Assembly (NCBI GenBank): GCA_048885925.1
Contig: JBHLLG010000011.1
Location: 1,200-65,199, forward strand
Direction of reading: 5' to 3'
From: Candidatus Hermodarchaeota archaeon
Lineage (GTDB): Archaea; Asgardarchaeota; Lokiarchaeia; Sigyniarchaeales; SOKP01
DNA: 64,000 bases
This document shows, piece by piece, positions 4,095 through 64,000 of this stretch (within the stretch, counting starts at the first letter, position 1; every line of letters starts with the position of its first letter). The notes beneath the pieces are model-generated. The model did no database searches. It had not been told where the DNA came from and saw nothing but the letters and a program-made list of their open reading frames with translations. The translations under genes were made by a program, and so were the position numbers.

Positions 4095-7070
4095 ATGAGT
4101 AGAACTGAAGAAATTACATATCCTCCTGAAGATATTCTAAATCCGAGAAATGGAAAAACAGATTATGAATATATAATCCTTTGGATGTTAAACGCTAATG
4201 ATTTATGCCAGTGGAGCGATTTTACGGTAGAAATTAGTGGATCAACCTTACATGGATATTTAAAGAAACTTTTAAACAAAGGTTATATTGACCGCCCCGA
4301 AAGAAATCAATATAGAATTACCGCAAAGGGGAGAGATAGGTTTAGTGAAGCGACCTATGATAGAAAATTGGGAAAAAGAAAATTAAAATATCCTCCAAAA
4401 GCTATTCTAAAGAGGCGGAACTATGATCATTGGATTTTATGGATGTTATCTAATAACTATTCATGCAAATGGTCTGATTTTAAACAAGAGCCGCTTTCAA
4501 TTAACCAATCCTCTTTATCTAGTACTCTAAATATATTATTGGATAAGCAATTTGTTGTTAGAAATAATAAAGAATATACAATTACTTCTACAGGAAAGAT
4601 TGAGTATCTAAGAATATTGAAATTGTATGATTTAGATCGGCAATCTATTTTAGAGCAAGAGAGTAAAAGAATTGAAGAAATCACTGAAAAGACAAAGGAA
4701 TTTTTTAATAAATATAAGATTGAAATCGCAGAACTGAAGTTCAGGTATCTTGATCTTGTTTTAAAGTTACCTTATTCAAAAGTAAAAACAGTGTTAAAAG
4801 ATGAGCAAGATTTTAATAAAATTTTACTATTCCTTGCAATCAATCATCCAGATAATTATCCTAATTATATTTCACCAGAAGTATTTTCTGGAAAATATGA
4901 TATTGATCGAATATCGCTTAATTATTACATAAATGAAATTGTTGATAATCAATTTTTCCAAATAGAATTCTTTAAGTTAGAAGATGACAAAGATAGGATT
5001 TATTATTTCCAAAAAAATGAACCACTTGAAAAATTACTTAATGCTACTGTTGAGAAGCATATTACAAAAATCACTTATTTGAATAAATTTCAAAGAAATC
5101 CAACTATTAATATTGATCAATTGTTAGAGAAGATTATAAATGATATATGTATTCATATCTTTCATAATGGTTTGAGAGAATCATTAAGAGATTTTTTACC
5201 AAATTATATAAAAAACTCAGCATATAAAATCGAATCTGAAAAAAAATTAATTGATAGTGAGGCAAAATTAGAAGGTTTTGTGTGGCAAAATATTTTTGAG
5301 GAGTTTCAAACTTTTGAACCATCAGCATCAGTAAATAATGGTAGTTTAGATGAATATTATTATACATTGGATAAACAAATTTTTGATGTTTTAGATATTA
5401 TGTTTATCTCAAAACTGAATTTTATCACAATTCAAGAATTTAAAAATACGGCTAATCTTAAAAAAGTAAAGATTCTTGATGAATTTATCAAATTATTATA
5501 TAGAAGTAAAATATCAAGAGCAAAAAATCTATATAGAAAGACTTTATCCGAATTAGATGAAATTCAGAAATTAATATTAAATGATATTCTTGTCACAGAA
5601 GAGTGTAATTTTAAAAAGTCTATTAACATTACAACAGAACTAATTAGGAAATTTCCATCAAAGTTTATTGGTTATTTATTACAATCTATTTCTTACTTTC
5701 TAATGGATGATTATGAAAACGCATTAAAAGTTATTGAAGAGGGATTTAAAAATGCACCCCATGTCCTTTTACTTTGTCAAAAAGCGCAAATATTTATTAA
5801 AGTTATGAGACAGGAAGAGATATTAAGTGAAATTAATGAAGCATTGTTGAATAATCCGCAACATATTTTATTACTACGAATTAAATATGCGCTTATTCTA
5901 ACTCATACTTTTAATAATTACCTAAGAAGTGGTGACGATCCCTTAAATGTCATAAATAATACGATAAAAATACGCCCAAATGATAAAGAATTATTAGTTT
6001 TAAAGAGTTTATTCTACTTTTTGATAAACAAATATAAAGAAGGAAAAGAACTTCTAATTAAAGAAATAGGATTTAATATATTTAATAAGAATCCTAAAAT
6101 AGATATACCTGCTTTTTTTCTTTTAGTTTTTTCTTATACTGCTAAAGGTAAATTCGATAAAGCTTTTAAAATTGCTAATCAGTTAAATGACATTTATCCA
6201 AATCACCCGATATCATATTTAACAAAAGCAATTGTAATGGGATATAATTTAATTTATGGATTTAAACTTCAAGATGCAGATATTGATACATTTAAAGAAT
6301 TAATTGAAAAAGCTATTTCACTTGAACGTCTTAACTACAAAAAGGTTAAGTATCTTCTGTTTCAAGCACGGGTATTTCATGAAATTAAGTATGAAGGTTC
6401 AATTAATATAATCAATAATGCAATTGATATAATTCCTACATTATCAAAACTTTATGCTGCTAAAGCTTATTTTTTAATGACTAATGGTAAAGAATTTGAA
6501 GCATTAAATTTAATTGATGAGACAGTTCACAAAAATCCTAATTTAAAATATATACTGCATTTTCAAAAATCTTTTATCCTTTTTGGAATGAAAAGATATG
6601 AAGAAAGCTTGAAAATTATAGATGAATTACTAAAAACACACCCAAATGGTATTAAATTACTCAATAATAAAGCTATATTCTTAGCTTTTATGGGCAAAAA
6701 AGATGAAGCCATTGAAACTGTTGAATATTTAATAAGTCTTAATCCAAATTTGGGAAATTCATATGATACATACGGAGAAATTTTAATGAATTTTAAAGAT
6801 TATGAGAATGCAATTAAAAAATATGAACATGCATTAAAAATAGAATCATTAGGGGGTTTTACTTTTCAAACCTGTGCAAAACTAGGCTTATGTTATCAGG
6901 AGCTAAAAAAGTATGATCAGGCTCTAAAGTATTTTGAAAAAGGTAAATTGCTAACAGAACGAATGATTCCTAGTGAAAGGGAACTTTATTTACATAAATC
7001 AGAAGAATATCTTTCAGAACTCAAGATATTAATGAATAAGTCAAATGATTATAATAATATGAAAAATTGA
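4095..7070 (+). CDS. Tandem winged-helix + long TPR-repeat protein
   Basis: 991 aa. Two similar N-terminal modules: YEYIILWMLNANDLCQWSDF..STLHGYLKKLLNKGYIDR...YRITAKGRDRF and YDHWILWMLSNNYSCKWSDF..SSLSSTLNILLDKQFVVR..EYTITSTGKIEY. The C-terminal ~500 aa contain many TPR-like units, e.g. NSYDTYGEILMNFKDYENAIKKYEHALKIE and CAKLGLCYQELKKYDQALKYFEKG. Confidence 0.7.
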   Translation: MSRTEEITYPPEDILNPRNGKTDYEYIILWMLNANDLCQWSDFTVEISGSTLHGYLKKLLNKGYIDRPERNQYRITAKGRDRFSEATYDRKLGKRKLKYPPKAILKRRNYDHWILWMLSNNYSCKWSDFKQEPLSINQSSLSSTLNILLDKQFVVRNNKEYTITSTGKIEYLRILKLYDLDRQSILEQESKRIEEITEKTKEFFNKYKIEIAELKFRYLDLVLKLPYSKVKTVLKDEQDFNKILLFLAINHPDNYPNYISPEVFSGKYDIDRISLNYYINEIVDNQFFQIEFFKLEDDKDRIYYFQKNEPLEKLLNATVEKHITKITYLNKFQRNPTINIDQLLEKIINDICIHIFHNGLRESLRDFLPNYIKNSAYKIESEKKLIDSEAKLEGFVWQNIFEEFQTFEPSASVNNGSLDEYYYTLDKQIFDVLDIMFISKLNFITIQEFKNTANLKKVKILDEFIKLLYRSKISRAKNLYRKTLSELDEIQKLILNDILVTEECNFKKSINITTELIRKFPSKFIGYLLQSISYFLMDDYENALKVIEEGFKNAPHVLLLCQKAQIFIKVMRQEEILSEINEALLNNPQHILLLRIKYALILTHTFNNYLRSGDDPLNVINNTIKIRPNDKELLVLKSLFYFLINKYKEGKELLIKEIGFNIFNKNPKIDIPAFFLLVFSYTAKGKFDKAFKIANQLNDIYPNHPISYLTKAIVMGYNLIYGFKLQDADIDTFKELIEKAISLERLNYKKVKYLLFQARVFHEIKYEGSINIINNAIDIIPTLSKLYAAKAYFLMTNGKEFEALNLIDETVHKNPNLKYILHFQKSFILFGMKRYEESLKIIDELLKTHPNGIKLLNNKAIFLAFMGKKDEAIETVEYLISLNPNLGNSYDTYGEILMNFKDYENAIKKYEHALKIESLGGFTFQTCAKLGLCYQELKKYDQALKYFEKGKLLTERMIPSERELYLHKSEEYLSELKILMNKSNDYNNMKN

Positions 7071-7081
7071 ATGTGATCTGA

Positions 7082-7747
7082 TTGGAATATCGATTCTTAA
7101 AATCTTTCAAGATTAATTCTGATTTTGGGTCATTATTGTCTGTGGATATTAGTTCCTATGCTGATGATACTGACTTTAATAATTTAATTGAGGAAATAAT
7201 GAACGAAATTGTAGATTCTGTCCAAAGAGGACAATTTCCAGATTATTTTTGGATAAAAGGGATTTCTAACAAAAAAAAATATTCAATCTGCAAAGACATC
7301 ATAGGACTGATCAAAGAACTTTATCCAACCCAGAAAATTGGAATGAACTTAAATTGCGCACTGTTTCAAGACGAGAATTTAAGAAACTACTTATATAAAT
7401 GCGATTTAGTTGCAATAAATTTGAACAGTATCGAATTATTAAATTTCTCAAAAATTAATAAATGTCCCGAATCTGCAAATCCAATAGAAATTTTAGATGG
7501 AATTAAAGAATTTAGAAGAAATTTTGATGGCAATCTTGGAATCTATATTCTATTTATAAGAGGCGTAAATGATAACACTAAAACTCTAGAGCATTTGAAA
7601 AAATATTTATTAGAACTTATGCCTGATCATTGTTCTATAAGTAATTACGTTTTAAATGGTTTTAAACCTATAACAGATAAGTTTAAACTAGTACTTAAAG
7701 AAAGTCTGAAAGATTTACCCTTTAAGGTTATTTATACTTTTAATTAA
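7082..7747 (+). CDS. Radical-SAM-fold-like protein lacking the CX3CX2C cluster motif (possible pseudoenzyme)
   Basis: TTG start 11 nt after the preceding stop. It is collinear with COG0731-type radical SAM proteins: ..FGSLLSVDIS.. sits where GrSLGvdl precedes the Cys motif, and DLVAINLNSIE..F.KINKCP....IEILDGIKEFRRNFDGNLGIYILFIRGVNDNTKTLEHLKKYLLELMPDH follows. No Cys triad and no GGEP-like motif are present. Confidence 0.4.
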   Translation: MEYRFLKSFKINSDFGSLLSVDISSYADDTDFNNLIEEIMNEIVDSVQRGQFPDYFWIKGISNKKKYSICKDIIGLIKELYPTQKIGMNLNCALFQDENLRNYLYKCDLVAINLNSIELLNFSKINKCPESANPIEILDGIKEFRRNFDGNLGIYILFIRGVNDNTKTLEHLKKYLLELMPDHCSISNYVLNGFKPITDKFKLVLKESLKDLPFKVIYTFN

Positions 7748-7853
7748 GAAATTTGTGAGAGAGATAAACAGATCAATATCCTTAATCAGAAGCATACTGA
7801 ATAATTATAGAGTGAGTTTTTTATTCCCGTGTAGAATGGTAGTCTCCAACTAT

Positions 7854-8462
7854 TTATATAAACCTAATGTAAGTTCCTCGATGAGAGTAGATGTAAAATA
7901 GATTCAAAAATATTTCCTTTTTAACTTTTCTCCGGAATTCTTTATTGAGATATGTAGCTGATCCAAATCTTATTTTTCCCCCATTAAACATATAGATTTT
8001 TACTATTCCCTGCACCTTGATTCCCATGTATGTTTGGGTAAAATATTTGATATTATTTACTTCAATCCATGAAAAGATACCTGAGCTTAAGATTTTTCGA
8101 TAGTAAAAACCTAAAGGACAAATAACTAGAAATACTCTTGAAGTAAGCAAACTAAATGAAATTACTGGCAATCCGAGAATTGGAAAAGTAATGAAAAGCA
8201 CAGAGCCGGGATCGGGGATGAATAAAGCAAAAAATGATACTATTACTATCACGAACATCAAGATTGTTAGAATCCAACCTCCTATATTCAATCCACCCTT
8301 TAGCACAAATATTTTACCTTTTAAGAATTCCCCAAGAATTTCTTCTTTTGTTGAGTAATTTCCGAATTGATAATTCCCCTTTTTATATTTCTGATACTCT
8401 AAGAGATATTCATCTAAATTTTTAATCTCACCATATGCATCCTTAGGAATCTCTTCTGTCAT
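7854..8462 (-). CDS. Two-TM membrane protein, member of a local paralogous family
   Basis: LDEYLLEYQKYKKGNYQFGNYSTKEEILGEFLKGKIFVLKGGLNIGGWILTIL is clearly similar to both halves of ORF 18037..19236. The C-terminal KEFRRKVKKEIFLNLF parallels NREFPRNYANMFLNLF. Confidence 0.6.
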   Translation of the reverse strand: MTEEIPKDAYGEIKNLDEYLLEYQKYKKGNYQFGNYSTKEEILGEFLKGKIFVLKGGLNIGGWILTILMFVIVIVSFFALFIPDPGSVLFITFPILGLPVISFSLLTSRVFLVICPLGFYYRKILSSGIFSWIEVNNIKYFTQTYMGIKVQGIVKIYMFNGGKIRFGSATYLNKEFRRKVKKEIFLNLFYIYSHRGTYIRFI

Positions 8463-9754: not shown

Positions 9755-10600
9755 TTGAAAAAAATAGAAAAAACGATTTTGCTATTAATTCTTATTATTT
9801 TCTCTCATCTATCGATCTTTTGGGTACCTGTATTGGGAAGAAAGGAAACAAAGACGGCTGTTGCTATCGCAGATGCCACTATCGACCAGTATAACCCAAA
9901 TTCTAATTATGGGGGAGGTATAAGCCTCGAAATCGGGTATTTTCTTGAATGGCTTGAAGCATGCATCAAATTCGACTTGTCAGATAAACCAGCTAAAACA
10001 AGAAAAGCGGAATTACGGCTTGATTTTTGGTATATTGAGGCAACTACCACAGTAGAAATTTATGATATTAGTTCAAGTTGGAATGAATATACAATAACAT
10101 GGAATAATGCTCCGTATTATGGTGAATTTCTGGGAGAGTTTACAGTTTATCAAGATGGGATATATATAATCGAAATAACAGATATTATTGAATTTGAGGC
10201 AGGTCAATGGTCAATTTGTCTAACTGCTGAGGAACAAAATTGGTTAATGCTCTCTTCAAGAGAAAGCTTCGGAGATCCTCCAAAAATAGTGTTTACCTAC
10301 GAAGTAAGCGATTTACCAATTATTATTGGAGTATTGGTCGTAATTGGTATAGTTGCGGCAATTGCCATTGGGGGATATACATATACCAAAAAACAAAAAT
10401 TGCGCAAAGAAGCAATATCACCTGTAGTTCCTCAGAAAGCTACTCCTGAACAGGTAGTTAAAGAAATTCCGGGAGCAAAAAAATACTGTCCAATGTGCGG
10501 AACACCAAATCCACGAGAAGCGGCATATTGTATCAATTGTGGGGAAAAATTTCCAGAATTAGATAATTATAAAAACCAAGACATTCTAAAGAATTTGTAA
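9755..10600 (+). CDS. Secreted DNRLRE/CBM96-like domain protein with TM anchor and C-terminal zinc ribbon
   Basis: Signal-like N-terminus. ADATIDQYNPNSNYGG...CIKFDLSDKPAKTRKAELRL...WNEYTITWNNAP matches the DNRLRE-domain pattern. TM segment IIIGVLVVIGIVAAIAIGGY, then CPMCGTPNPREAAYCINCG. Confidence 0.6.
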   Translation: MKKIEKTILLLILIIFSHLSIFWVPVLGRKETKTAVAIADATIDQYNPNSNYGGGISLEIGYFLEWLEACIKFDLSDKPAKTRKAELRLDFWYIEATTTVEIYDISSSWNEYTITWNNAPYYGEFLGEFTVYQDGIYIIEITDIIEFEAGQWSICLTAEEQNWLMLSSRESFGDPPKIVFTYEVSDLPIIIGVLVVIGIVAAIAIGGYTYTKKQKLRKEAISPVVPQKATPEQVVKEIPGAKKYCPMCGTPNPREAAYCINCGEKFPELDNYKNQDILKNL

Positions 10601-10653
10601 TGGTTCAATTTACATTACTCTTATCTTTATAACACAAAAAATTACCAAAGACA

Positions 10654-10926
10654 ATGAGAGAAAATATAAAAAATGTATGTTTGATTTTGGCTTTAGTAAT
10701 TACTGGTGTCTCACTCCCAACAAGCGTTATATCAATAATGAGTAAACCAACTCAACCAATTACAGAAGTTAATAATTATTATTATAATAACACTGTAATT
10801 GAGAGATATAACAACACAATAATTGTATGGGTAAATAATACTGTCGTAGTGAATGAGACCATTGAAGAGAGTGAACCAATTTCAGATAGAAGTAAACCAC
10901 CAGAGAATTTTCGGCATTTGATATAG
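10654..10926 (+). CDS. Small membrane-anchored protein rich in N-glycosylation sequons
   Basis: N-terminal TM segment, then the repeated sequons YYNNTVIERYNNTIIVWVNNTVVVNETIE. Confidence 0.4.
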   Translation: MRENIKNVCLILALVITGVSLPTSVISIMSKPTQPITEVNNYYYNNTVIERYNNTIIVWVNNTVVVNETIEESEPISDRSKPPENFRHLI

Positions 10927-11027
10927 ATTCATTTATCATTATAATGCAATTTTTCTCGGACTTTTTAAATAAAAAATTTAGACGTACAATTTTATAACCC
11001 CAGAGACTAGAAATTTTATAATTTTAG

Positions 11028-11198
11028 CTGGATCTCTTTTTTTCTTTAAATAAAAGGGGCGAAATTAAAAGTATAATAGAAAAAAATCCTACTCATATTT
11101 ATGAAACTATTGGAAATTTCACTGTTTCTGTAACTGTCGTTGATAGGGATGGAGATTTTGACATTGAAACTAAAATTGATTATATTTTAGTTAATTAA
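11028..11198 (+). pseudogene. Orphan C-terminal PKD-domain fragment (no start codon)
   Basis: The frame is open only from nt 11028. It translates ...IIEKNPTHIYETIGNFTVSVTVVDRDGDFDIETKIDYILVN*, the classic PKD tail (P.H.Y...G.YtVtltVtD..G). There is no upstream Met or signal peptide. Confidence 0.5.
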
Positions 11199-46614: not shown

Positions 46615-46983
46615 CTAAAACCATTGCGTCGCATCTACTTCTAATACTAAATCATTTAACGTAGCAGCTCCCACAATTTTAACTCCTGGAATTAATTCTA
46701 CTTTTTCCCAACCTAACATTCTTTTTGAAGCTTCACAGACTAATATTTCAATACCCATATCCAATGTTTTATTAATCATTTCTTTCACACTAGGAAAATT
46801 GCCAAGTTTAATTCTTTCAGCCTCACCAGGCTTTAAAATTCTTAATCCTGTACCTAAATAATAAATAGTTGCATCAAGATCCATTGCTTTAGCAGTTTGA
46901 GCTAATACTAATGGTGAATATTGTCGCTCTGGATTATCACTGGTTTGTACATATAAGATGCGTTTTTTATTTTCAGTAATAAT
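46615..46983 (-). CDS. DsrE/DsrF-like family protein; the conserved N-terminus precedes the listed ATG
   Basis: The listed ORF starts at MDLDATIYYLG. The frame is open upstream and encodes ...IITENKKRILYVQTSDNPERQYSPLVLAQTAKA|MDLD..., the typical first beta-alpha unit of DsrE-like proteins. The extension has no ATG, GTG or TTG. AGGTGG lies just upstream of ATT ATT. Confidence 0.5.
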   Translation of the reverse strand: MITENKKRILYVQTSDNPERQYSPLVLAQTAKAMDLDATIYYLGTGLRILKPGEAERIKLGNFPSVKEMINKTLDMGIEILVCEASKRMLGWEKVELIPGVKIVGAATLNDLVLEVDATQWF

Positions 46984-47174
46984 TAACCACCTTTTAATTT
47001 ATTATTTTTATATTTAATAATCAAGTTTATCAATAAATTAATGCTATAATGTTATAATATCATCAATTAATAAATCTCGTCATTATATTTCAAAAAAAAA
47101 AGGAGGATTTATAAAAATAAAATATTGAAGATCTATTAAAAAATAAATATTATATCACCTTATTTCATTAATAT

Positions 47175-49436
47175 TTACCTATAAATCCCTTCTGGCAATT
47201 CTTTGATAGCTTCCTTGTATGATCTGTTGGCTTTATCTGCGCCTTTTTTAATTTTTTCAATTGCTCTATCAAAATCTTCCTGATTAATTTTAATTTGTGA
47301 ATAAGATTTAGGATTTAATGGGTCAATGTTAGTTTGAAAAACTCCTTTTCGAATTGCTAAAATAGTAGCTTCCTCACATACTGCCTTTATATCAGCACCA
47401 CTATAACCTTCTAATTTCTCAGCTAGTAATTCTATATTAATATCATCACTAATAGGACGTTCTTTCAAATGTATTTCAAATATTTTTTTACGTGAATTCT
47501 TATCTGGTAAAGAAATTTCAATATGTCTCCCAAATCTACCTGATCTTAATAAAGCAGGGTCAAGTAGATCAGGTCTATTTGTAGCTGCGATCAATATTAC
47601 ATCTTTAAGTTCTTCTAAACCATCCATTTCGGTTAGAAGTTGTGCTACAACTTGTTCTGTTACTTTTGAATCTGAGGAATCTGAACGTCTAGATGCGATA
47701 GCATCTATTTCATCAAAGAAAATAATACAAGGAGTTGCAGATCTTGCTTTTCGAAAGGTTTCTCTTACAGCTTTTGCGCTTTCACCTACCCATTTAGATA
47801 TAAATTCTGGACCTTTAACTGAGATAAAGTTAGCTTCAGTTTCATGTGCAAGAGCCTTTACTAGTAATGTTTTACCAGTACCAGGAAGCCCGAATAACAA
47901 GATACCATTTGGGGGTCTTGATTTCATATGTTTATAAAAACCAAGATAAAGTAATGGCCATTCAATAATTTCTTTTAATTGTTGTATTGCATCTTCTAAT
48001 CCACCTATTTCATCCCATCTTTCTGAAGGTTGAGTAATAAAGACTTCTCTTAATGCTGATGGTTCAATAGAATTTAATGATTCAATAAAATGTTTCATTT
48101 TAATCTTTAATCGATTTAGAACTTCTTCGGGGATTGGTTTATCAAGATCAATTTCTGGAAGTATTTCTCTAATAGCAAGCATAGCGGATTCTTTACAAAG
48201 TGATTTTATATCTGCACCGACAAAACCATGGGTTTTCTCAGCAATAAATCTCAAATTCACTTCTTCATCTAAAGGCATTCCTCTAGTATGAATTAATAAA
48301 ATTTCATATCTCCCATTAGTGTCCGGAACTTTAATTTCAATTTCTCTATCAAATCTGCCTGGTCTTCTTAAAGCAATATCAATATTGTTTACTTTATTTG
48401 TAGCTCCAATAATAATAGTTTCTCCTCTGCTTTTCAAACCATCCATGAGAGATAATAATTGGGCAACTACTCGTGATTCAACTTGATTTTTACTTTCATC
48501 TCTTTTTGGTGCAATAGAGTCCAATTCATCAAGAAAAATTATTGAAGTTGCATTTTCTTTAGCTTCTTGAAAAATATTTCTAAGGTTTTCTTCACTTTGC
48601 CCAAAAAATTTACTCATAATCTCAGGACCACTAATAGTAATAAAATGAGCATCAGTTTCAGAAGCAACTGCTTTTGCAATTAAAGTCTTTCCTGTACCAG
48701 GGGGTCCATATAACAATATTCCTTTTGGAGGATCAATACCTATTCGTTCAAAAAGTTCTGGATGACGTATGGGAAGTTCAATAATCTCTCTAATTTTCTG
48801 AATTGTTTCTTCTAATCCTCCAATATCCTCATAAGTAACTCTTTCACTTATCTTTTGGAGCTTTTTTTCTATGTCACTTATTCCTTCATATTTTACTACT
48901 TTCTTTTTTACTTCAATATAATCATGGGATGTTTCTGTAAACGAAATTTTAGTATTTAGATTAATTTTAACTGCTTCAGTTTTTGGCAAGTAATTAACAA
49001 CTACCAGATCAATTCTATGCCCCATTGCGTAAAAACTAAGACTATCACCAAGTGTTACAACTCTTTTTTCTAATTTTCTTGCTAATGCTTGAGGATCACG
49101 TGGGATTAATGAATTATTTAAACCAGTAAAGATTATATTTTCAGCAAAATCAGCATTGATCTTCTTAATTTCCACGAGATCATCAATAGAGGCAGCTAAG
49201 TTTCTTCTTAAGGATGGATCCATCCTAATAATTTGCTTTCCTTTATCTTCATTTCTTCCTGAAGACAATAAAGCAACAGTAATTTTTTTTACAAAGGGAT
49301 GGGAAATTCGAATTGTATCACCAACCTTTAAATTTAATTTACTTATTATACTGGGATCTATTCTTATTATTCCTCTACCCGCATCCTCTTTAAAAGCATC
49401 CTTGATCCTTAACTTATATTCCGGTGTTGTACTCAT
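47175..49436 (-). CDS. cdc48: CDC48/VCP-type AAA+ ATPase (N domain + D1 + D2)
   Basis: N-domain ...[23 protein letters not shown]. Two Walker A motifs ([26 protein letters not shown]) and two Walker B motifs ([16 protein letters not shown]). 753 aa. Confidence 0.9.
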
Positions 49437-49523: not shown

Positions 49524-50510
49524 TTATTTTTCAAGAAGTTCCTTTGCAATTTCGAATGCATAATTATAATCAAATACTTTCAAACCCTTTGTATTAGCAG
49601 CTTCTTTTAAAATTTGACTTTCTGAATCTGCTTTTAAACGTCCTAGAGCCAATGCTCCGATTCCAAAAATTCCTGGATAAATTTCATCATTCTTATGTTT
49701 GGGTTTAATACCATCAATACCATAAGGTGGAACCAAATTAATATCTACAACAATTTTCTTGCCATTTAATTTTTTCATTAATTCTTCATTTAAAATCTCA
49801 ACACCCGCTGCAGCTAATGACCATATAATCTCAGCATTCTTTACGACATTAAATCTCTCTTCTAATTTAGGAGCAAAAACACCCTTAATTTTTATTGTTT
49901 GATCCCCTATCTCTTCATTAAGTTCTGTTACTAGTTGTTTAATGAAATATTCATTAGATTTGTCCCAAGTTTCTACTAAATAAGTATTACACCCAATTCT
50001 AGCTGCTAAAATTGCCGCTATTTGCCCCACTGGACCTGCACCGAAAATTACAACTTTCTTATCTTTTAAATCATTAAAGCCATGCTTCTTTTTAGCTATA
50101 TCTATTGTCATAGCGACTACAGCAGAAGCAGTAGTATGAGATCCTCTTGGATCAATTATCACAGGACATTCAAAAGGAGGAACCAACGACTTTATAACAG
50201 CCTTAGCTATTTTTTCTCCTTCTTTAACATCTGAACCTCCAATAAAAAAAGTAGTAGGCGCATTTGGTTTACGTGAAAAAATTGCATCTTGTACCAATTT
50301 AGGTACATTCTCTGCTCTCATCTTACTTATTGGTATGACAATATCAAATCCTGAATCATATGCCATATTTATATCAAATGGTGAAGCATTGTCATCTGTA
50401 TCAAAGAAATAACAAATCTTATCTGAAGTATCTTTCTTTTTAATAATGATAGGGGTCAATTCTATTATCGATTTCTTTCCAAGAATGCTTTCAACCTCTC
50501 TTTCTACCAT
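49524..50510 (-). CDS. MtdA/MtdB-like NAD(P)-dependent methylene-tetrahydromethanopterin/tetrahydrofolate dehydrogenase
   Basis: YFFDTDDNASPFDINMAYDSG..., ...FFIGGSDVKEGEKIAKAVIKS..PPF...IDPRGSHTTASAVVA..., Rossmann VVIFGAGPVGQIAA, and the tail FGIGALALGRLK are collinear with the methylotroph MtdA/MtdB family as I recall it. Confidence 0.65.
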   Translation of the reverse strand: MVEREVESILGKKSIIELTPIIIKKKDTSDKICYFFDTDDNASPFDINMAYDSGFDIVIPISKMRAENVPKLVQDAIFSRKPNAPTTFFIGGSDVKEGEKIAKAVIKSLVPPFECPVIIDPRGSHTTASAVVAMTIDIAKKKHGFNDLKDKKVVIFGAGPVGQIAAILAARIGCNTYLVETWDKSNEYFIKQLVTELNEEIGDQTIKIKGVFAPKLEERFNVVKNAEIIWSLAAAGVEILNEELMKKLNGKKIVVDINLVPPYGIDGIKPKHKNDEIYPGIFGIGALALGRLKADSESQILKEAANTKGLKVFDYNYAFEIAKELLEK

Positions 50511-50551: not shown

Positions 50552-51280
50552 TTAAGAAAGATCAACTTCTAACTCTTTTTCAAAAACTTGCTCAACTGAT
50601 TCTGTTTTAATAGTTCTTTCTATTCTCACTTGTTCGATTTCAATCCCTAATTCTTCTGAAAGTTTCCCAAGTCCAATAAAATGTCGTGGATCACATATAA
50701 ACATACCAATAATTTTATTCCCTTCTATTTCTCTTGCAACATTTAATATTTTCATCATCATCCAAGCTTCTCTAACTTTATATCTTATTTCATCTTCTTG
50801 AGAATCATAGTCTTGTTTTAAATATTCTTTCCATAATACAATTCTCTGAAAAATGTCATCATTTTCAGGAATATTTTGTTTAGTTTTCATAATTTCATTT
50901 ATTCTTCGCTCAAGGTTTTTAATATGGATTCTATGCTCATCTAACGTGGAAGAGAGATATAATTCCGCATTCTCTGAAATATCTGCATAATCAAAAGGAA
51001 TTTTTCGATTTTTAAATAACAATCTAAGCGGTTCATTTGAATTCATGTCATTTTTCCACATATTTGGCCTCTCTTCTAAAGCAAATTTAGGTTTGTATTT
51101 TTCAAGGAGTACATCAATCAATTGAAGATATTCCTTAGAAATTAAATGAAGATTCCAAAAAAGATCTTCTTTTAAATTTTTAGGAATTTCAAACCACCAA
51201 TCGATAGGAAATTCACTCTCTACTAATACCAATTTTAAACTTTTATTTTTTAAAGGTTTTAATTCTAAAACTTCAGGCAT
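50552..51280 (-). CDS. Hypothetical protein, tandem paralogue of 51306..51923
   Basis: The N-terminus MPEVLELKPLKNK is shared with its neighbour (MEVLELKPIENKK). REAWMMMKILNVAREIEGNKIIGMFICDPRHFIGLGKL is weakly TraB/GumN-like. Confidence 0.45.
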   Translation of the reverse strand: MPEVLELKPLKNKSLKLVLVESEFPIDWWFEIPKNLKEDLFWNLHLISKEYLQLIDVLLEKYKPKFALEERPNMWKNDMNSNEPLRLLFKNRKIPFDYADISENAELYLSSTLDEHRIHIKNLERRINEIMKTKQNIPENDDIFQRIVLWKEYLKQDYDSQEDEIRYKVREAWMMMKILNVAREIEGNKIIGMFICDPRHFIGLGKLSEELGIEIEQVRIERTIKTESVEQVFEKELEVDLS

Positions 51281-51305: not shown

Positions 51306-51923
51306 TTATAATATTATTTTTTGTATAGTATGTTTTTTATTATAAGAGATTACTTTTACACCTATTTCTCTTAAATTTTCAACAATTTGTAGACATATAT
51401 CTTCACATATATCTTCTTGAACAAAATGGACAAAAAAAATGGTATCTTTTTTAAATGAGCATGCTATATCCAACATTTTCTTGACGATCCATTGAGGTCT
51501 TAACTTTAAACTAAGAAATATCTCCTTTTCTTGAATTTCTTCACCTAACATATCGATCCAATTTTTTAAACTTTGCCCTTTATAAGATTCTTTATTCTCC
51601 ATCATTTCATATTCTTCAAACAATTCATTTTGAAACTCTTGTTTTTCAATTATCTCTTGATATAAATATCCCATTGCATAATCAGGAATATCTACTTGAA
51701 AATAGGGAATCTTAAGTTCATTCAAGGCTAGAGCAAAAGTAGTTTTACTAAATTCTTTCATATCAACTTGAAAATCAACTGTAACAAAATCAATATTGTT
51801 TCTTTTCAAAAATTCAACTAATTTTGAATGATCTACATTCTGAAAATATCTAGCATTTTCTTTAGAAGATACATATACAACAATTTTTTTATTTTCTATT
51901 GGTTTTAATTCTAATACTTCCAT
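51306..51923 (-). CDS. Hypothetical protein, tandem paralogue of 50552..51280
   Basis: 205 aa with the shared N-terminal motif. ...LRPQWIVKKMLDIA...IFFVHFVQEDICEDICLQ is comparable to its neighbour's C-terminal region. Confidence 0.45.
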   Translation of the reverse strand: MEVLELKPIENKKIVVYVSSKENARYFQNVDHSKLVEFLKRNNIDFVTVDFQVDMKEFSKTTFALALNELKIPYFQVDIPDYAMGYLYQEIIEKQEFQNELFEEYEMMENKESYKGQSLKNWIDMLGEEIQEKEIFLSLKLRPQWIVKKMLDIACSFKKDTIFFVHFVQEDICEDICLQIVENLREIGVKVISYNKKHTIQKIIL

Positions 51924-52033
51924 TTTTAATATCCACCTTCAGAATCAATTCTTTATCAACTAAATTTATTGAATTTATAAAATGATTCATTTATTTTTCA
52001 TATACAACTCTAAGAAGCGTTGTATTTACTCTA

Positions 52034-52128
52034 ATTAAATGATGATTTGAAAAAGATTTAAATAATTTGATAAGAATAATTTTAATCGATTTGACAATAA
52101 AATTTATCAAATTTCTTTTTTGTCAAAT
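52034..52128. promoter_or_regulatory. Conserved intergenic element, copy A, with TTGACAA-type inverted repeats
   Basis: 52034-52110 aligns without gaps to 61194-61270, 61 of 77 positions identical by my count, including the exact 14-mer tgataagaataatt. It contains ttgacaataaaatttatcaa, plus a 9-bp perfect inverted repeat atttgacaa (52089-97) / ttgtcaaat (52120-28). Confidence 0.45.
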
Positions 52129-52658
52129 TTTTTATTCAAGGCTAAAATTAGATTGTTTTATTTTCCCATGATTTTATAAAAAATCATACTATCTTAATTT
52201 GAATATTATTTTTATCATGAAATTAGAAAAAATTAAATTTTTTTATAATATAAGAGAAGTAACATTGGAATGTTTGGTCTTATACTATATATCGTGTGAT
52301 ATATTTATTTTGTTGTTAATATTATTAGATAATATGATTGATTTATATGTATAAATCTATTGAAATTGAATAAAATGATCATTTCCATCTAGTCTAAGTA
52401 GTTTTTCCCAATTACAGGTTTTTGGATCCTTAAAATAAAAGTTAAAGTTTTTATATTTTGACTACCATTTTAATCATGATGATAATTAAAATTCAAAAAA
52501 AACAAATAATTCATTGATAATCAAGATTGTTCATGTTCTATAAAGTTTAATCTGAAGATATATATTCTGCTTTACTCATCCAATTATTTCCAATTTAAAG
52601 CTTTATCGTGAATGTAAAGAAAGTAATTTTTAAAATTGAAATTATAATTATTTAAAAG

Positions 52659-52841
52659 TTGGAGGGAAAAAAAACATTGGTTGAAAAGAAAAAGGAAAAA
52701 GAGTTTTGTCCTATTTGTGGGTTCATTATAGAAGAAAACGATTATATTTATAGACATAAAGGACCTAGTGGGTATAAATGTTCTAACTGTGGATTTTTTG
52801 AGTTAATAGTCGAGAATCAATATTCAATACATCACTATTGA
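52659..52841 (+). CDS. Small zinc-ribbon protein
   Basis: CPICGFIIEEN...YKCSNCG. The start is uncertain: TTG at 52659 overlaps a GGAGGG Shine-Dalgarno-like run, and TTG at 52677 is an alternative. Confidence 0.4.
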   Translation: MEGKKTLVEKKKEKEFCPICGFIIEENDYIYRHKGPSGYKCSNCGFFELIVENQYSIHHY

Positions 52842-58850: not shown

Positions 58851-58987
58851 AATCTTTATTAACAAATATTTTTAACTTTAATAAAAATAACCAATCTTTT
58901 AATCACTTCAAATTAATTTGAACTGAAGATATAAATTCATATCAATTATTATTCTATATTTTTCTGAAAACCCATACGATGGGTTAG

Positions 58988-59022
58988 TCTCCTCTCAACT
59001 AATATTTTTTTGAGAAGATCAT
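58988..59022 (-). promoter_or_regulatory. Candidate SECIS element (AUGA-helix-GA, k-turn-like) in the 3' UTR of the Sec-HdrA gene
   Basis: Minus-strand RNA 11 nt after the stop: AUGA(59022-19)-UCUUCUCA(59018-11)-AAAAAAUAUUAGU-UGAGAGGA(58997-90)-GA(58989-88). The arms form 8 pairs (7 Watson-Crick plus 1 G.U) and the apical loop is A-rich. Confidence 0.45.
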
Positions 59023-59033
59023 TCCTTTCCAGA

Positions 59034-61070
59034 TTAAGTGTGATAAGGAGCTAATGCTTCAATCTTTTTCCAAATAAGTTCAATAGATTCAATATATTCT
59101 TCCTTATATTCAAGTTCAGTATTACAAATGCCTTTTATCTCTTCAACAATTTGTTTATCTCTATAATATTTAAGATCAATTGCCCTAGCTGGACAGGATG
59201 ATACACAAACACCACATCCTTTGCATTTCAATTCATCTATTTCTGCAATTTTATCTCCATTAACCATTACAGCCTTGTAATTACATAATTTTTCACATCT
59301 ATGACAACCAATACATAGATTTTCATTTATTTCAGCAATTATTAATTCTTGAACGATTGCATCTTTTGATAGTAATGTAGATGTTTTACTCGCTGCAGCT
59401 AATGCTGTTGATACCGAGTATGGGATATTTTTTGGGCCAGCAGCACACCCACAAATATAAATTCCCATATTATTAGTTTCTTGAGGTTTTAGACATCCAT
59501 GAACTTCAGATAAAAATCCATTAATATCTTTACTTAAACCTAATGTCTCAATTAATTTTGTTGTATTCTTAGAAGGGATCATGCCCGTTGATAATACAAC
59601 AAGATCTGTATTCATTGTTATCATATCATTTGTTAAGGTTGAAGAAGCTGTAATTTTGAGGTTTTTTGTTATTGAATCTTCTCGTATATCACCAACTTTT
59701 CCTCGAATCATCATAATCCCTGCTTCTCTCACTTTTCTATAATATTCTTCATTCCCTTTATCCCATGTACGCATATCTATATAAAAAATGGCAATATTAA
59801 TATCAGGATATTCTTGTTTTAACAGTTGAGCATTCTTAAGAGCAACATTACAACATACTCCTGAACAATAAGGATTTCCTTTTAAAGATCTCGAACCAAC
59901 ACATTGAATCATAGCTACTGTTTCTGGGATTCTTCCATCAGAAATTCTATAGACATGACCCCCTGTTGGTCCAACTGGACTTAACATGCGCTCTAATTCT
60001 ATTTGAGTAATTACATCTGGATAAATTCCATATTTATAATCATTATTTTTCATAATTGGATATTCATCCCATCCTGTGGCAAGAATTACAGCACCAACTC
60101 TTATATCAATAAATTCTGGCACCTGTTCAAAATCAATAGCTTCTGCTTGACACAATTTTTGACAATTTTTGCATTCTATGCACACATTCTTATCAATTAT
60201 CGCAACTTTAGGTACAGCTTGAGGAAATGGTATATAGATTGCACTACGTTCACCAATACCACGATTGAATTCATTAGGTACTGTTATAGGACATTTTGTG
60301 GTACATAATCCGCATCCTGTACACTTTTTTTCGTTAACATAACGTGGATTTTTTTGTATTCTAACATTATATTTCCCAGGAATACCACTAAATCCAATAA
60401 TTTCACTATAAGTCAGAAGGGTTATATTTGGGTGTTTTGAAGCATTTACCATTATAGGGGCTAAAACTCATATAGCACAATCGTCAGTGGGATAAATTCT
60501 ATCTAATTGTGCCATTTTTCCACCAATAGTTCCTTCTTTTTCGATTAGAAAAACTCTCACTCCCTGATTTGCTAAATCTAATGCAGCATTCATCCCAGCA
60601 ATTCCAGCACCTATTATTAATACTGATTTCTCCACTGAAATTTTTTTATACGGAACAATCTCTAATTCTCGAGCACGATTGATACCTGCTTGTACTAATC
60701 TTATAGCTTTTTCAGTTGTATCTTTTTTATTATTTGAAGATATAAATGAGCAATGTTCACGAAAATTTACCATTTGAAAATAATATGGATTTAATCCTGC
60801 TTCAGCTAAAACTGCTCGATAAGTAGACTCATGAATTTTTGGTGTACAAGCAGCTACAACTACTCGGTTTAAATCTAAATCCAAAATATCGTTCTTGATA
60901 AGATTTTGCCCTGGATCACTGCAAGTAAAATCATTTGCTCTAGCTATAATGATATTTGGGAGTGCTTCAACATAATCTCTAATAAGGTCACAATCAATAC
61001 TGGCTCCTATATTAACTCCTCATCTGCAAATATACACTCCGATTCTTGCAATGGTCTGTTTTTCAGACAT
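59034..61070 (-). CDS. hdrA: Heterodisulfide reductase subunit A homologue, predicted selenoprotein with two in-frame UGA (Sec) codons
   Basis: Three collinear same-frame pieces: ATG 61070...ICR-TGA(61022-20)-GVNIGAS..., ORF 60468..60884 ending ...IYPTDDCAI-TGA(60470-68), then VLAPI + ORF 59034..60452. The TGAs align with Cys of VCQCGINIGG and of DCSLCILAPKM in the neighbouring HdrA (54115..57228). The full HdrA domain order is restored (678 codons). Confidence 0.85.
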
Positions 61071-61193
61071 CTAATTCACCCTTCCAAACCTCACCAAATA
61101 TTATTCTATAATAATATCTCAAGATTTTGTTTTGAGAAAAAAAACTAAATTTACATAAATGTAAGTATAATTATTTTATTGTACTTTATCCCG

Positions 61194-61270
61194 ATTAAAT
61201 AATGAATTAGAAGAGATTTAAAAAATCTGATAAGAATAATTATAGTCATTTTGACAAATGAATTTGTCAT
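61194..61270. promoter_or_regulatory. Conserved intergenic element, copy B, with a perfect palindrome
   Basis: Gap-free match to 52034-52110. It contains TGACAAAT-GA-ATTTGTCA (61252-61269). A related site, ttgacaatcatatttatca, lies at 61418-61436, 75 nt upstream of the ATG at 61511. Confidence 0.45.
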
Positions 61271-61510
61271 TATTATATAAAATGTATTGATTTGGTCTTT
61301 GATTTGATCTTAATCCAATATAGTGTTTACCTTTTTCTTTGTATTGTGCAAATTATCGATAGTGACAATTATGTTTTATGGGAAAACTTTTAGTCAAGAT
61401 GATCATATTTATATAGTTTGACAATCATATTTATCATAGAGATCATAAAAATTATTAAAATAGTCATAATAAATTTTATGATTATAAAATTAATTTAGTG
61501 ATTTTTCATA

Positions 61511-62644
61511 ATGAGGATAAAGACTTTTAAAGATTTAATTGAAGAAGTTCATAAACCAGGTATTTGTCAAGAATGTGGGGGTTGTGTTAGTTTTTGTAAT
61601 TCAATTAAATATGATGCAATTGGGTTTAAAAAGCCTAATTCACCTCCGGAGTACTTAAATGAAGATAAATGTCTTGAATGTGGAATTTGTTATTTTATAT
61701 GCCCACAGACACATATTTTAGATGAGGATTTAAATAAAACTTATAATTTTTCAGATAGTACAAAAATGCCTTTAGGATTTATAGATAGTATTTACTCTTG
61801 CCAATCTTTAGATGATGAATTTTTAAAATATGGAACAGACGGAGGTGTTGTGAACTCTATCATTAATTATTTAATAGAAAAAAATTTTATTGAAGGAGCA
61901 ATTGTAGCAAAAACAACATCACCTTTTAATAGGGAATCGATAATAGCTAGAAACAAAAAAGATTTAATTGGTGCTTCGGGTGTCAAATTAGATATAACTC
62001 CTCAGCTAGAAATTGTACAAAAGTTTCATACTTATACGAGTTCATTACCCAGTTTAAGGCATTATAAATTTAAAAAAATAGCATTAGTAGGCACACCTTG
62101 TCAGATTTATACGATTAGATGTATGCAAGAATTAGGTATTATTCCATCTGAGAATATCGAGATTTGTCTAGGATTATTTTGTTATGAGAATTTCTTTTTT
62201 GACAAAGAGAGGGTAGAGAAATTCGAAAAATACTTTAAGCTTAAGTTTAAAAATATTGAAAGGGTAAACATAAAGGAAAATTTAATTATCAACATAAAAA
62301 ATAAGAAAAATCCTCAAAAAACTATTCATATTCCATTTGAAAAATTAACTGATTATTCACGTCCAGCTTGTAGTGTTTGTAAAGATTTTACGAATATTTA
62401 CGCAGATATTTCATTTGGAGGATTAGGTTCACATGATAAATATACAACTGTAATCACACGCACTAAAAAAGGGGAGGAATTAATCAATAAAGCGCTGCGA
62501 GCAGGTGTAATTAAAAGATTTAGATTAGATAGCTCCAATTTAAAGGATTTAAAAGAAACATTAATACAATTTACTCAGTTGAAGTTAAAGCGAACAGAAG
62601 AAAATATGAGATATAAGATGATAACAGGGAAATCGTCATCATGA
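61511..62644 (+). CDS. FrhB/FdhB/FpoF-family flavoprotein with N-terminal 2x[4Fe-4S] (paralogue of 57735..58850)
   Basis: CQECGGCVSFCN and CLECGICYFICPQ, then GTDGGVVNSII...IALVGTPCQIYTI...GLFCYENFF...CSVCKDFTNIYADISFG. Confidence 0.8.
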   Translation: MRIKTFKDLIEEVHKPGICQECGGCVSFCNSIKYDAIGFKKPNSPPEYLNEDKCLECGICYFICPQTHILDEDLNKTYNFSDSTKMPLGFIDSIYSCQSLDDEFLKYGTDGGVVNSIINYLIEKNFIEGAIVAKTTSPFNRESIIARNKKDLIGASGVKLDITPQLEIVQKFHTYTSSLPSLRHYKFKKIALVGTPCQIYTIRCMQELGIIPSENIEICLGLFCYENFFFDKERVEKFEKYFKLKFKNIERVNIKENLIINIKNKKNPQKTIHIPFEKLTDYSRPACSVCKDFTNIYADISFGGLGSHDKYTTVITRTKKGEELINKALRAGVIKRFRLDSSNLKDLKETLIQFTQLKLKRTEENMRYKMITGKSSS

Positions 62645-62734: not shown

Positions 62735-64000
62735 GTGGATATTTATTCAATATTATCTCATCCATTTAGAAGAAAAATCCTACTGCTTTTAGAAAAGGAG
62801 GGTTATATTCCTTATTCAGATTTAATGGAAAGACTTGGTTTAGATACAACTGGACAACTAAATTTTCATCTTAAAAAGATAGGTTCATTGATAGGTAAAG
62901 ACAAAAAATCGTATTATCTTACAGAAGATGGCAAACGAGTATTAAGAATTATTAGTTTGAACAAAAGAATTTTATCTGGAGAAGATATTGATGAATACTT
63001 AGAATCTAAGGGGAGTGAAATAAGCCGAATTGGAGTAATTATTTGTAATTGTAATACCGAAGTTTCAAGTGTAATTAATATCACTGCGTTAGAGAATTAT
63101 ATAAATAAATTGAGAATGGTAGTTTCAGTAAAAGTTTTTGATAATTTATGTCAAGAAAAAAATTTCAAAAAGATTATTAATTGGGTTAAAGATAATTTTT
63201 TAAATAAGATTGTAATAGCTGCTTGTTCCCCAAAAACGCACCAGCTTCTATTTGAACGAATCTTTGAAGATATTATTGACCGTGCAAATATTGAAATAGC
63301 AAACATTAGGGAGCAGTGTTGTTGGGTTCATCAAACTAAAACAAACAAAATAGATCCTTCACTTTCATTGGAAAAATCTAAATTATTAATTGAAGCTGCA
63401 GTTGAGCGCGTAAACATTCAAAAGAAAGTAAAAGTAAAAAGAGTTGAAGTAGAAAAGAGTTGTGCTATTTTAGGTGGAGGAATTGCAGGTATTACACTCG
63501 CATTAAATTTAGCTCGAACTGGCATTAAAGTTCATCTTATTGAGAAATCGCCTACATTAGGAGGTAAAGTAGCGAGATGGCATCGAATCCATCAAATGGG
63601 TGATTGTTCAATATGTTTTATTTCAGAATTAATCAGCGAATTAACAAATCAAAAAAATATAAAAATTTATACTAATACTGAAATTGAAAATGTATCAGGA
63701 GAAGTGGGCAATTTTACTCTTCGTTTAATTAAGAAACCTCGTTTTATTGATGTGAAAAAATGCACAGGATGTAAACAATGTATTGAAGTTTGTAGTATAC
63801 AAAAGCAAAATCAATTTGAATATGGTTTAACTAATCGAAAAATAATATATATCCCTTTTATTCATTCATATCCTTTCGCTCCTATAATTGATAAAGAAGA
63901 TATAAATAAATGTATTAGTTGTAGAATTTGTGAACGTGCATGCGCTAATAAAGCTATAGATTTAACTCAAAAAGATGAAAAGATTGAGATTAAGGTTGGT
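62735..64000 (+). CDS. ArsR-type winged-helix domain fused to an HdrA-like flavo-Fe-S protein (3'-partial; not in ORF track)
   Basis: GTG at 62735 sits 7 nt after GGGAGGGAG, and the frame is open for 422 codons to the window end. N-terminus: DIYSILSHPFRRKILLLLEKEGYIPYSDLMERLGLDTTGQLNFHLKKIGSLIGKDKKSYYLTEDGKRVLRII (wHTH). The HdrA N-domain follows (IGVIICNCNTEV...IAACSPKTHQ...NIREQCCWVHQ), then FAD motif CAILGGGIAGITLALNL, GDCSICF, and ferredoxin motifs CTGCKQCIEVC and CISCRICERAC. Confidence 0.8.
   Translation, partial: MDIYSILSHPFRRKILLLLEKEGYIPYSDLMERLGLDTTGQLNFHLKKIGSLIGKDKKSYYLTEDGKRVLRIISLNKRILSGEDIDEYLESKGSEISRIGVIICNCNTEVSSVINITALENYINKLRMVVSVKVFDNLCQEKNFKKIINWVKDNFLNKIVIAACSPKTHQLLFERIFEDIIDRANIEIANIREQCCWVHQTKTNKIDPSLSLEKSKLLIEAAVERVNIQKKVKVKRVEVEKSCAILGGGIAGITLALNLARTGIKVHLIEKSPTLGGKVARWHRIHQMGDCSICFISELISELTNQKNIKIYTNTEIENVSGEVGNFTLRLIKKPRFIDVKKCTGCKQCIEVCSIQKQNQFEYGLTNRKIIYIPFIHSYPFAPIIDKEDINKCISCRICERACANKAIDLTQKDEKIEIKVG

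Follow-up and report, generated by a model that had tools for sequence, protein, structure and literature searches.

A conserved promoter-operator cassette predicted upstream of hdrA(Sec) and unk205 genes in Asgard archaea

SurR is a position-dependent dual regulator, similar in this respect to TrmBL1 of Pyrococcus furiosus. When TrmBL1 has its site upstream of the TFB recognition element (BRE) and TATA box the outcome is activation, and when the site lies between the TATA box and the transcription start the outcome is repression (PMC4706686). Here we analyse a stretch of 64,000 nucleotides (64 kb) from a Candidatus Hermodarchaeota archaeon, hereafter the window (G+C content 28.9%), in which a 77-nt block stands in the intergenic spacers of two loci that encode Hdr and FrhB proteins. 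This block is the conserved core of an 80-odd-bp cassette that we name M1. The cassette is genuine and under strong selection, and it is defined here for the first time in an Asgard lineage; as a class of cis-element, an archaeal promoter combined with an operator, it is familiar and ordinary. We consider it likely that M1 is a promoter-operator cassette of the minus strand, where it would serve hdrA(Sec), an hdrA gene with selenocysteine (Sec) codons, and an operon that begins with the gene of a 205-residue protein, unk205. Its putative operator is an 18-bp dyad, which recurs in a second promoter, M2, proximal to frhB and to wHTH-hdrA, the gene of an HdrA2-MvhD protein fused to a winged helix-turn-helix (wHTH) domain. 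As with TrmBL1, one palindromic site is re-used at several promoters, upstream at M1 and in the interval between TATA box and start at M2. Unlike TrmBL1, the motif is TGACAAA-N4-TTTGTCA and not the Thermococcales glycolytic motif (TGM), the candidate regulator is an ArsR-like wHTH fused to an enzyme and not a TrmB protein, and the arrangement is read here from sequence alone.

Repressors of the ArsR/SmtB type, such as SmtB and CzrA, bind AT-rich inverted-repeat operators of the form 12-2-12. The system described here is like theirs in having a wHTH domain nearest to the ArsR-type structure 1y0u, a dyad, rich in A and T, whose arms read TGA...TCA (8-2-8 in copy B) and a site in the candidate regulator's own promoter; it is unlike theirs in that the wHTH takes up the first 97 of the 849 residues of a flavo-iron-sulfur protein, HdrA2-MvhD, in which no metal-sensing site is evident. 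The bacterial flavoenzyme PutA doubles as a repressor, acting on its own put operon through a ribbon-helix-helix domain. If wHTH-HdrA binds the dyad, it would likewise be a flavoenzyme with an N-terminal DNA-binding domain that regulates its own gene and others of the same pathway, plausibly by redox state, although the domain is a wHTH instead of a ribbon-helix-helix, the protein is archaeal instead of bacterial, and the analogy is functional only, the binding of wHTH-HdrA being a prediction. In Methanococcus, the regulator of the switch between Sec and Cys isoenzymes, HrsM, is of the LysR type. That switching is selenium-dependent (PMC11097638). The window likewise pairs a Sec-containing HdrA with a Cys paralog, the two genes being divergently arranged with one and the same dyad placed oppositely in their promoters; where HdrA(Sec) reads CRUG and CAIU, the HdrA2-type protein reads CNCN and CSIC, both Sec positions being occupied by Cys. 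It differs from Methanococcus in that the candidate is not LysR-type and M1 also stands before the unk205/MtdB operon, which has no Sec codons; by this analogy, a selenium link of the M1 and M2 dyads would be speculation.

The two copies of the block in the window, at 52034-52110 (copy A) and 61194-61270 (copy B), align without gaps at 61 of 77 positions, as an earlier note on this DNA had counted, and no other diagonal between the two spacers matches as well; across 200 first-order Markov shuffles of the spacers the best 77-mer had a mean of 44.0 identities (s.d. 1.5, maximum 50). Outside the block, the remaining spacer sequence gives no convincing alignment between the two loci. The individual features listed in the earlier note were all recovered, namely the 14-mer TGATAAGAATAATT, which is exact in both copies and occurs only at 52068 and 61228 in the window, the perfect palindrome TGACAAAT-GA-ATTTGTCA of copy B (61252-61269), and, in copy A, both TTGACAATAAAATTTATCA (52091-52109) and a 9-bp inverted repeat, atttgacaa and ttgtcaaat, at 52089-97 and 52120-28. 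The two related sites closer to the plus-strand genes also exist, at 61418-36 and 52458-76, and the matrix built from the family gives 19.8 bits to the former and only 11.1 to the latter. The distance from the block to the minus-strand start codon is 111 nt for the gene that starts at 51923 and 124 nt for the one that starts at 61070.

A profile scan of the window detects only these two copies of M1, the next match having E=0.05. The iterated nhmmer profile covers 38 copies in the window and 77 related GTDB loci, and a context-blind IUPAC pattern made from the invariant columns recovers 31 of these 38, and nothing else, in 1.3 Mb. When 241 million metagenome records were scanned with the pattern, 100 stretches were returned, of which 50 contain true profile matches (64 copies) and the other 50 are chance pattern matches rejected by the profile. 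In total the profile recognises 103 copies of M1, in metagenome-assembled genomes (MAGs) of Promethearchaeota and in independent metagenome contigs, with the family consensus TTCCRATTAAAT, about 16 nt, AATTTAAAWAATYTGATAAGAAAAATT, 6 nt, and ATTTTGACAAA-N4-TTTGTCA. The block is present at orthologous hdr loci of related genomes, and the positions of M1 are orthologous and syntenic in many MAGs. The identity of alignment columns to their majority residue is 0.85 in M1-B (16 orthologous spacers) against 0.65 in the adjoining spacer, and 0.86 in M1-A (8 orthologous spacers) against 0.63-0.64 in its flanks; a neighbouring small coding open reading frame (ORF) reaches 0.78, which is below the M1 blocks, and all of this was measured across genomes whose FrhB proteins are only 70-75% identical.

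The genes around M1 indicate which of them it serves. The gene proximal to the TTCC end of the cassette, which lies on the minus strand in the window, is always transcribed away from the block; it is unk205 in 43 of the 103 copies, hdrA(Sec) in 37 and a short unk205-like paralog of about 80 aa in 18, and the remaining copies are three at contig ends and two without a match. Ninety-eight of the 100 assessable copies therefore have a leftward gene from one of three families, in a single orientation, and the distance from M1 to its start codon is 26-124 nt, with one case of 247 nt. The opposite side of M1 varies. It can hold an hdrBC operon, frhB or wHTH-hdrA; at least 29 copies adjoin the 3' end of hdrA(Sec) or cdc48 on this side and face no plus-strand gene. 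Because the left gene family is constant and the right side variable, M1 appears as a minus-strand module and not as a general Hdr/FrhB coordinator. The proposal that the block coordinates both Hdr/FrhB loci is thus contradicted by its context and by the copies that face no plus-strand gene; in addition, paralogous loci with HdrA (31-35% identical) and FrhB (60-65%), many of them in the same MAGs, have no M1, M2 or strong dyad. In the compact tandem contexts (C- and D-type), the Shine-Dalgarno sequence and ATG are too near for any other promoter, so that M1 must contain the promoter of the leftward gene. The idea of a shared operator can be kept in part: a selected cis-element with a dyad-symmetric site is shared and retained at orthologous loci, and it is more than an operator, with a core promoter inside (Table 1).

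Table 1. Positions of the promoter elements, dyads and genes discussed in the text (window coordinates unless a locus is named).
Feature	Position	Strand	Remarks
M1 cassette, copy A	52028-52110	-	Upstream of unk205-unk242-mtdB-cdc48 operon; profile E=6.7e-12
M1 cassette, copy B	61188-61270	-	Upstream of hdrA(Sec); profile E=1.3e-13
Predicted start-site region	61189-61195	-	ATCGGGA; family ATYGGAA; pyrimidine-purine step 61193/61192
TATA box, copy A	52056-52066	-	
TATA box, copy B	61216-61226	-	Plus ATTTAAAAAAT, minus ATTTTTTAAAT; about -24 to -34
14-mer, copy A	52068-52081	-	
14-mer, copy B	61228-61241	-	TGATAAGAATAATT, minus AATTATTCTTATCA; directly upstream of TATA, about -36 to -49
Dyad, copy A	52091-52110	.	
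Dyad, copy B	61252-61269	.	TGACAAAT-GA-ATTTGTCA; 22.7 bits; centre about -68, span -60 to -77
Extra half-site ttgtcaaat	52120-52128	.	Inverted repeat with 52089-52097; 10.3 bits
Weak second dyad TTGAATATTATTTTTATCAT	52199-52218	.	108 nt right of M1-A dyad; 11.6 bits
M2-like TATA and degenerate dyad	52447-52476	+	tttttatatt-TTGACTACCATTTTAATCA; 11.1 bits
M2 promoter	61400-61466	+	Proximal to frhB/wHTH-hdrA; column identity 0.88 in 16 spacers
M2 TATA box TTTATATA	61408-61415	+	
M2 dyad TGACAATCATATTTATCA	61419-61436	+	19.8 bits; between TATA and predicted start at about 61438
Cdc48	47175-49436	-	unk205 operon
MtdB-like dehydrogenase	49524-50510	-	unk205 operon
unk242	50552-51280	-	Second operon gene; no family match
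unk205, 205 aa	51306-51923	-	First gene of operon behind M1-A
hdrA(Sec), two in-frame TGA (Sec) codons	59034-61070	-	Gene behind M1-B; from translation and Pfam
FrhB	61511-62644	+	Locus B
wHTH(ArsR-like, DUF7347)-HdrA2-MvhD fusion	62735-64000, cut by window end	+	Pfam DUF7347, HTH_24; candidate dyad binder
Paralogous HdrA/FrhB locus	L021-L066, e.g. positions 6300-7900 and 10001-11100		Without M1, M2 or strong dyad

Read on the minus strand, M1 is a concrete and conserved promoter architecture, with a TATA box, a start region and an unusual element at the BRE position. Conservation ends at its left edge with ATYGGAA, in which a variable pyrimidine (C or T) precedes a G in nearly all copies and an A in a few, copy A among them. 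The centre of the TATA box lies 28-29 nt away from the resulting pyrimidine-purine step, and ATYGGAA has the position and form expected of an archaeal initiator. From this geometry and the gene context, starts are predicted at about 61192 and 52032, with leaders of about 122 and 109 nt, respectively, and of about 25-50 nt in the compact contexts. The TATA core AATTTAAA (TTTAAA) is nearly invariant over all copies of the family, and so is the 14-mer (AATTWTTCTTATCA in consensus form), which covers the BRE position and beyond. On the minus strand the BRE position reads TTATCA(G/A/T)A, unlike the A-rich BRE of other promoters in the window, which have a TATA box 30-60 nt before the ATG, ordinary A-rich bases upstream of it and no 14-mer; the 14-mer therefore appears to be specific to M1 rather than a general BRE. 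ATCAnA is also found before the TATA box of M2, and the core of the 14-mer, TGATAAG, is similar to the dyad half-site TGAYAAA.

The leader of unk205 contains a hairpin at 52005-52025 (ACAAC...GTTGT), just downstream of the predicted minus-strand start, with equivalents in L020, L068, L112, L113, L119, L150 and L160 and longer versions in L005, L008, L017 and L120. Some A-type leaders have such hairpins, which begin about 12 nt after the predicted start, and their sequence differs by genome with a few compensatory changes (three of seven pairs have double changes, in an alignment with register problems); they lend weak support to leftward transcription.

M2 has the sequence GATCATATTTATATA-gtt-TGACAATcataTTTATCA and, after it, a conserved leader; its layout of TATA box, three nucleotides and dyad differs from the M1 promoter and has only the dyad in common with it. 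In all arrangements seen, this layout stands before wHTH-hdrA, and a second dyad often follows closely downstream; among these arrangements are those in which frhB is absent or decayed, wHTH-hdrA lies beside unk205, or wHTH-hdrA is divergent from hdrA(Sec). In the metagenome contigs L154, L158 and L079, the frhB gene after M2 is truncated or missing and both M2 and wHTH-hdrA are kept. M2 thus follows the wHTH-hdrA gene rather than frhB. The M2-like element of locus A is conserved only in the closest relatives (window, L001 and L068; alignment A3).

The 18-bp dyad that links the two promoters has the symmetrised matrix form TTGACAAA-N4-TTTGTCAA and is highly specific to these loci. Taking a strong dyad as one of at least 18 bits by the family-built matrix, 76 are inside M1 and 39 outside it, and all 115 lie within 330 nt of an M1 copy; 1.19 Mb of loci without M1, among them paralogous Hdr/FrhB loci of the same MAGs, contain none. 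Three strong dyads occur in the window, at 52091, 61251 and 61418. A- and C-type spacers have a further dyad 98-108 nt to the right of the M1 dyad, and in relatives this second dyad, at an offset of 107 nt, scores 17-19.7 bits and has a TATA-like run before it (L005 699, L008 720, L076 555).

These arrangements can be drawn together in a mechanism. M1 would drive hdrA(Sec) from about 61192 and unk205-unk242-mtdB-cdc48 from about 52032, and elsewhere the short unk205 paralog, with a dimeric wHTH regulator sitting on the dyad. The M1 dyad, upstream of BRE and TATA, would be at the usual activating position of archaeal regulators, and the M2 dyad, between TATA and start, at a repressing one, from which we infer activation at M1 and repression at M2. 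A single factor could in this way exert reciprocal control, setting the Sec-type HdrA and the unk205/MtdB operon against its own Cys-type HdrA2 unit. The likeliest factor would be the ArsR-like wHTH carried by the HdrA2-MvhD protein encoded behind M2, which would make this protein an autoregulated enzyme-regulator fusion.

The candidate consists of an N-terminal wHTH (DUF7347, HTH_24), an HdrA2 model match at residues 98-843 and a C-terminal MvhD domain, and is 849 aa long in L001. In a profile search against the PDB, the wHTH matched 1y0u best (E 0.003), followed by MntR, all of these being marginal matches (E 0.003-0.02), and NCBI names fragments of the fusion as ArsR-family or wHTH regulators. 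Across 15 genomes the wHTH domain has a mean column identity of 92%, against 73-87% in the enzyme part, and the predicted recognition helix region, TTGQLNFHLKK, is invariant. A search for homologs of the wHTH returned contig-edge fragments only and no standalone paralog; in the searchable literature, we found no description of wHTH-HdrA fusions or of DUF7347. The gene is linked to M1 loci and always has a dyad in its own promoter, even after rearrangements. This evidence is circumstantial, and on its strength we name wHTH-HdrA2-MvhD as the tentative binder of the dyad, with slightly less than even confidence. The fuller proposal, in which the protein would be, in analogy to PutA, a redox-sensing enzyme-regulator fusion that represses its own frhB/hdrA2 promoter, activates the M1 promoters and so couples the redox or cofactor state of an electron-bifurcating Hdr module (or selenium supply) directly to the transcription of Asgard energy-metabolism genes, seems to us rather unlikely.

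A serious competitor, although we would not give it even chances either, leaves the cassette as it is and has the dyad bound by an unlinked regulator, the wHTH on HdrA2 serving, for example, for protein-protein contact or for another DNA target. Regulators with a wHTH are numerous in archaeal genomes, separate factors may be required for the 14-mer and the dyad, and the association between wHTH-hdrA and the sites is inseparable from synteny. On the other side, wHTH-hdrA has stayed directly behind a dyad promoter through at least three rearrangements (with frhB, alone beside unk205, and divergent from hdrA(Sec)), which is the usual signature of autoregulation, its wHTH is the only DNA-binding domain detected among the conserved genes flanking M1 spacers, and that domain is better conserved than the enzyme to which it is attached.

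Several considerations weigh against the minus-strand cassette and the mechanism built on it. The regulon is drawn only from fetched loci and a strict pattern (sensitivity 31/38). The predicted leaders of 109-122 nt in A- and B-type contexts are long for archaea, and an additional proximal promoter is possible there. The 14-mer is unlike the usual purine-rich BRE and may be the site of a separate factor. Divergent firing is possible, since TTTAAA is a palindrome that has an A-rich, BRE-like run before it on the plus strand also. Dyads upstream of the TATA box are not always activating. As to the binder, the co-occurrence of wHTH and dyad across loci is perfect, yet it is confounded by synteny and was not counted as independent evidence, and the motif and the recognition helix are both invariant.

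The same palindromic core and the A-rich AGAAA before TTTAAAAA are what could make the block a plus-strand or bidirectional operator or promoter for the Hdr/FrhB operons on its right, with the TATA box firing rightward and the dyad, at +3 to +21, acting as a roadblock; its targets would be the zinc-ribbon gene-hdrBC-hdrA-mvhD-frhB operon at locus A and frhB/wHTH-hdrA at locus B. Such operons do stand to the right in A and B contexts, TGATAAG follows the TATA box by 3 nt just as TGACAAT does in M2, and in many genomes the FrhB start codon stands at a nearly fixed 320-322 nt from the block. We nevertheless regard this as improbable, because at least 29 of the 103 copies face a convergent gene at its 3' end and have nothing to drive, the right-hand genes change with context where the left-hand family is constant, frhB/wHTH-hdrA has its own conserved promoter in M2, 90 nt from the ATG, and the first plus-strand ORF of locus A is about 550 nt away.

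Much less probable still is that the block, which is conserved and intergenic, encodes a small regulatory RNA or a structured leader with the palindrome as a shared hairpin, as the earlier note had allowed. A perfect 8-bp hairpin is possible in copy B, and a test of this reading is given by the degenerate position of the dyad, which is mirrored in the two arms (C or T in one, G or A in the other). Both half-sites are conserved, and this single position varies largely independently in each: among 92 copies the pairs are C.G 35, C.T 16, C.A 15, T.A 11, T.G 7 and T.T 6. The mirrored bases are non-complementary in 41% of copies, so that pairing is not maintained. Fifty full-length blocks fold no better than their shuffles (mean z -0.57 and -0.70; minimum free energy -6 to -8 kcal/mol), an Rfam search of the block finds nothing, whether at gathering scores or at E<=1, and its best-conserved parts are the TATA box and the unpaired 14-mer. 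The dyad is thus predicted to be a protein-binding site rather than part of an RNA.

That M1 is a dispersed or mobile repeat, similar to a miniature inverted-repeat transposable element, which landed in both spacers, is a negligible prospect despite its two copies in one window and its internal inverted repeat, given that there are only those two copies in 64 kb, that the family is confined to a few gene contexts, with 98 of 100 assessable copies before the same three gene families in one orientation and in synteny across MAGs, that the metagenome scan added the same contexts only, apart from chance matches, and that no terminal repeats or target duplications flank the block.

Three further readings of the block were tried and rejected. 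As a bacterial sigma-70 promoter with TTGACA for its -35 box, it lacks a -10 box at 17 nt, and both the taxonomy and the genes are those of archaea. A selenocysteine insertion sequence (SECIS) in the 5' leader is not indicated, the block being AT-rich and unstructured, and a lokiSECIS-like hairpin is found in the 3' region of hdrA(Sec) instead. A small ORF in or after the block would begin at a conserved ATG (61282), after which the window has a stop and relatives have differing frames.

Asgard gene regulation is largely undescribed and most of the genomes are MAGs; in the searchable literature we found no description of Asgard promoters, start-site data or regulons. M1 defines a small energy-metabolism regulon in this lineage. 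The predicted regulon is compact, bringing together a multi-selenocysteine HdrA, an HdrA2-type paralog, FrhB, an MtdB-like dehydrogenase and two Asgard-only proteins, unk205 and unk242, whose membership suggests that they belong to electron flow linked to Hdr or to tetrahydromethanopterin (H4MPT). The combination of a specific 18-bp dyad and a 97-residue wHTH makes the idea of an enzyme acting as regulator testable without culturing the organism.

The relatives of the window's FrhB are all from MAGs of Promethearchaeota (Asgard, Lokiarchaeia-type), and a protein identical to unk205 is recorded from a MAG labelled Candidatus Hermodarchaeota by NCBI. Neither unk205 nor unk242 has a match in Pfam, NCBIfam or the PDB; the named homologs of unk205 are all hypothetical proteins of Asgard MAGs, and its AlphaFold2 (AF2) model (predicted local distance difference test, pLDDT, 81.5) has no significant structural neighbour in the PDB. 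The two proteins, which share the N-terminal start (M/MP)EVLELKP, are apparently paralogous, and a fusion of unk242 with the MtdB-like gene (558 aa) exists in some genomes. On the plus strand of locus A, a small zinc-ribbon ORF is followed by an HdrB/C-like gene, a double HdrA, MvhD and FrhB. The zinc-ribbon ORF (52659-52841, plus strand) encodes 60 aa with CPxCG...CxxCG, has its own Shine-Dalgarno sequence and, in each of the eight relatives aligned, lies directly 5' of the HdrB/C-like gene; the HdrB/C operon probably begins with this ORF.

Lokiarchaeota are known to have HdrA genes with multiple Sec codons (PMC4989117). In the 3' region of hdrA(Sec), at 58963-59033 (minus strand) in the window and at 7459-7548 in L011, there is a conserved hairpin whose 9-bp stem, 11-nt apical loop and AUGA...GA motif fit the published description of lokiSECIS (PMC4989117). 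There is no vhuD 3' of this hdrA(Sec), unlike in the published HdrA-VhuD pairs, so that the SECIS-like element comes directly after hdrA. Two other sequences are conserved in the B-type spacer, a palindrome, TTTACAnAAATGTAA, in the hdrA(Sec) leader (61152-61167) and a GATC-rich motif, ATGnACGnATCTGATC-N7-TGATC, between M1 and M2 (61282-61309).

Finally, a DsrE-like ORF (46615-46884, minus strand) matches its Pfam model only from position 30 on. Its frame is open upstream, to about 47010, behind a good Shine-Dalgarno sequence and without a canonical start codon, and it may use a non-canonical start. A weak dyad of 11.8 bits lies at 47014, near the upstream region of this ORF.

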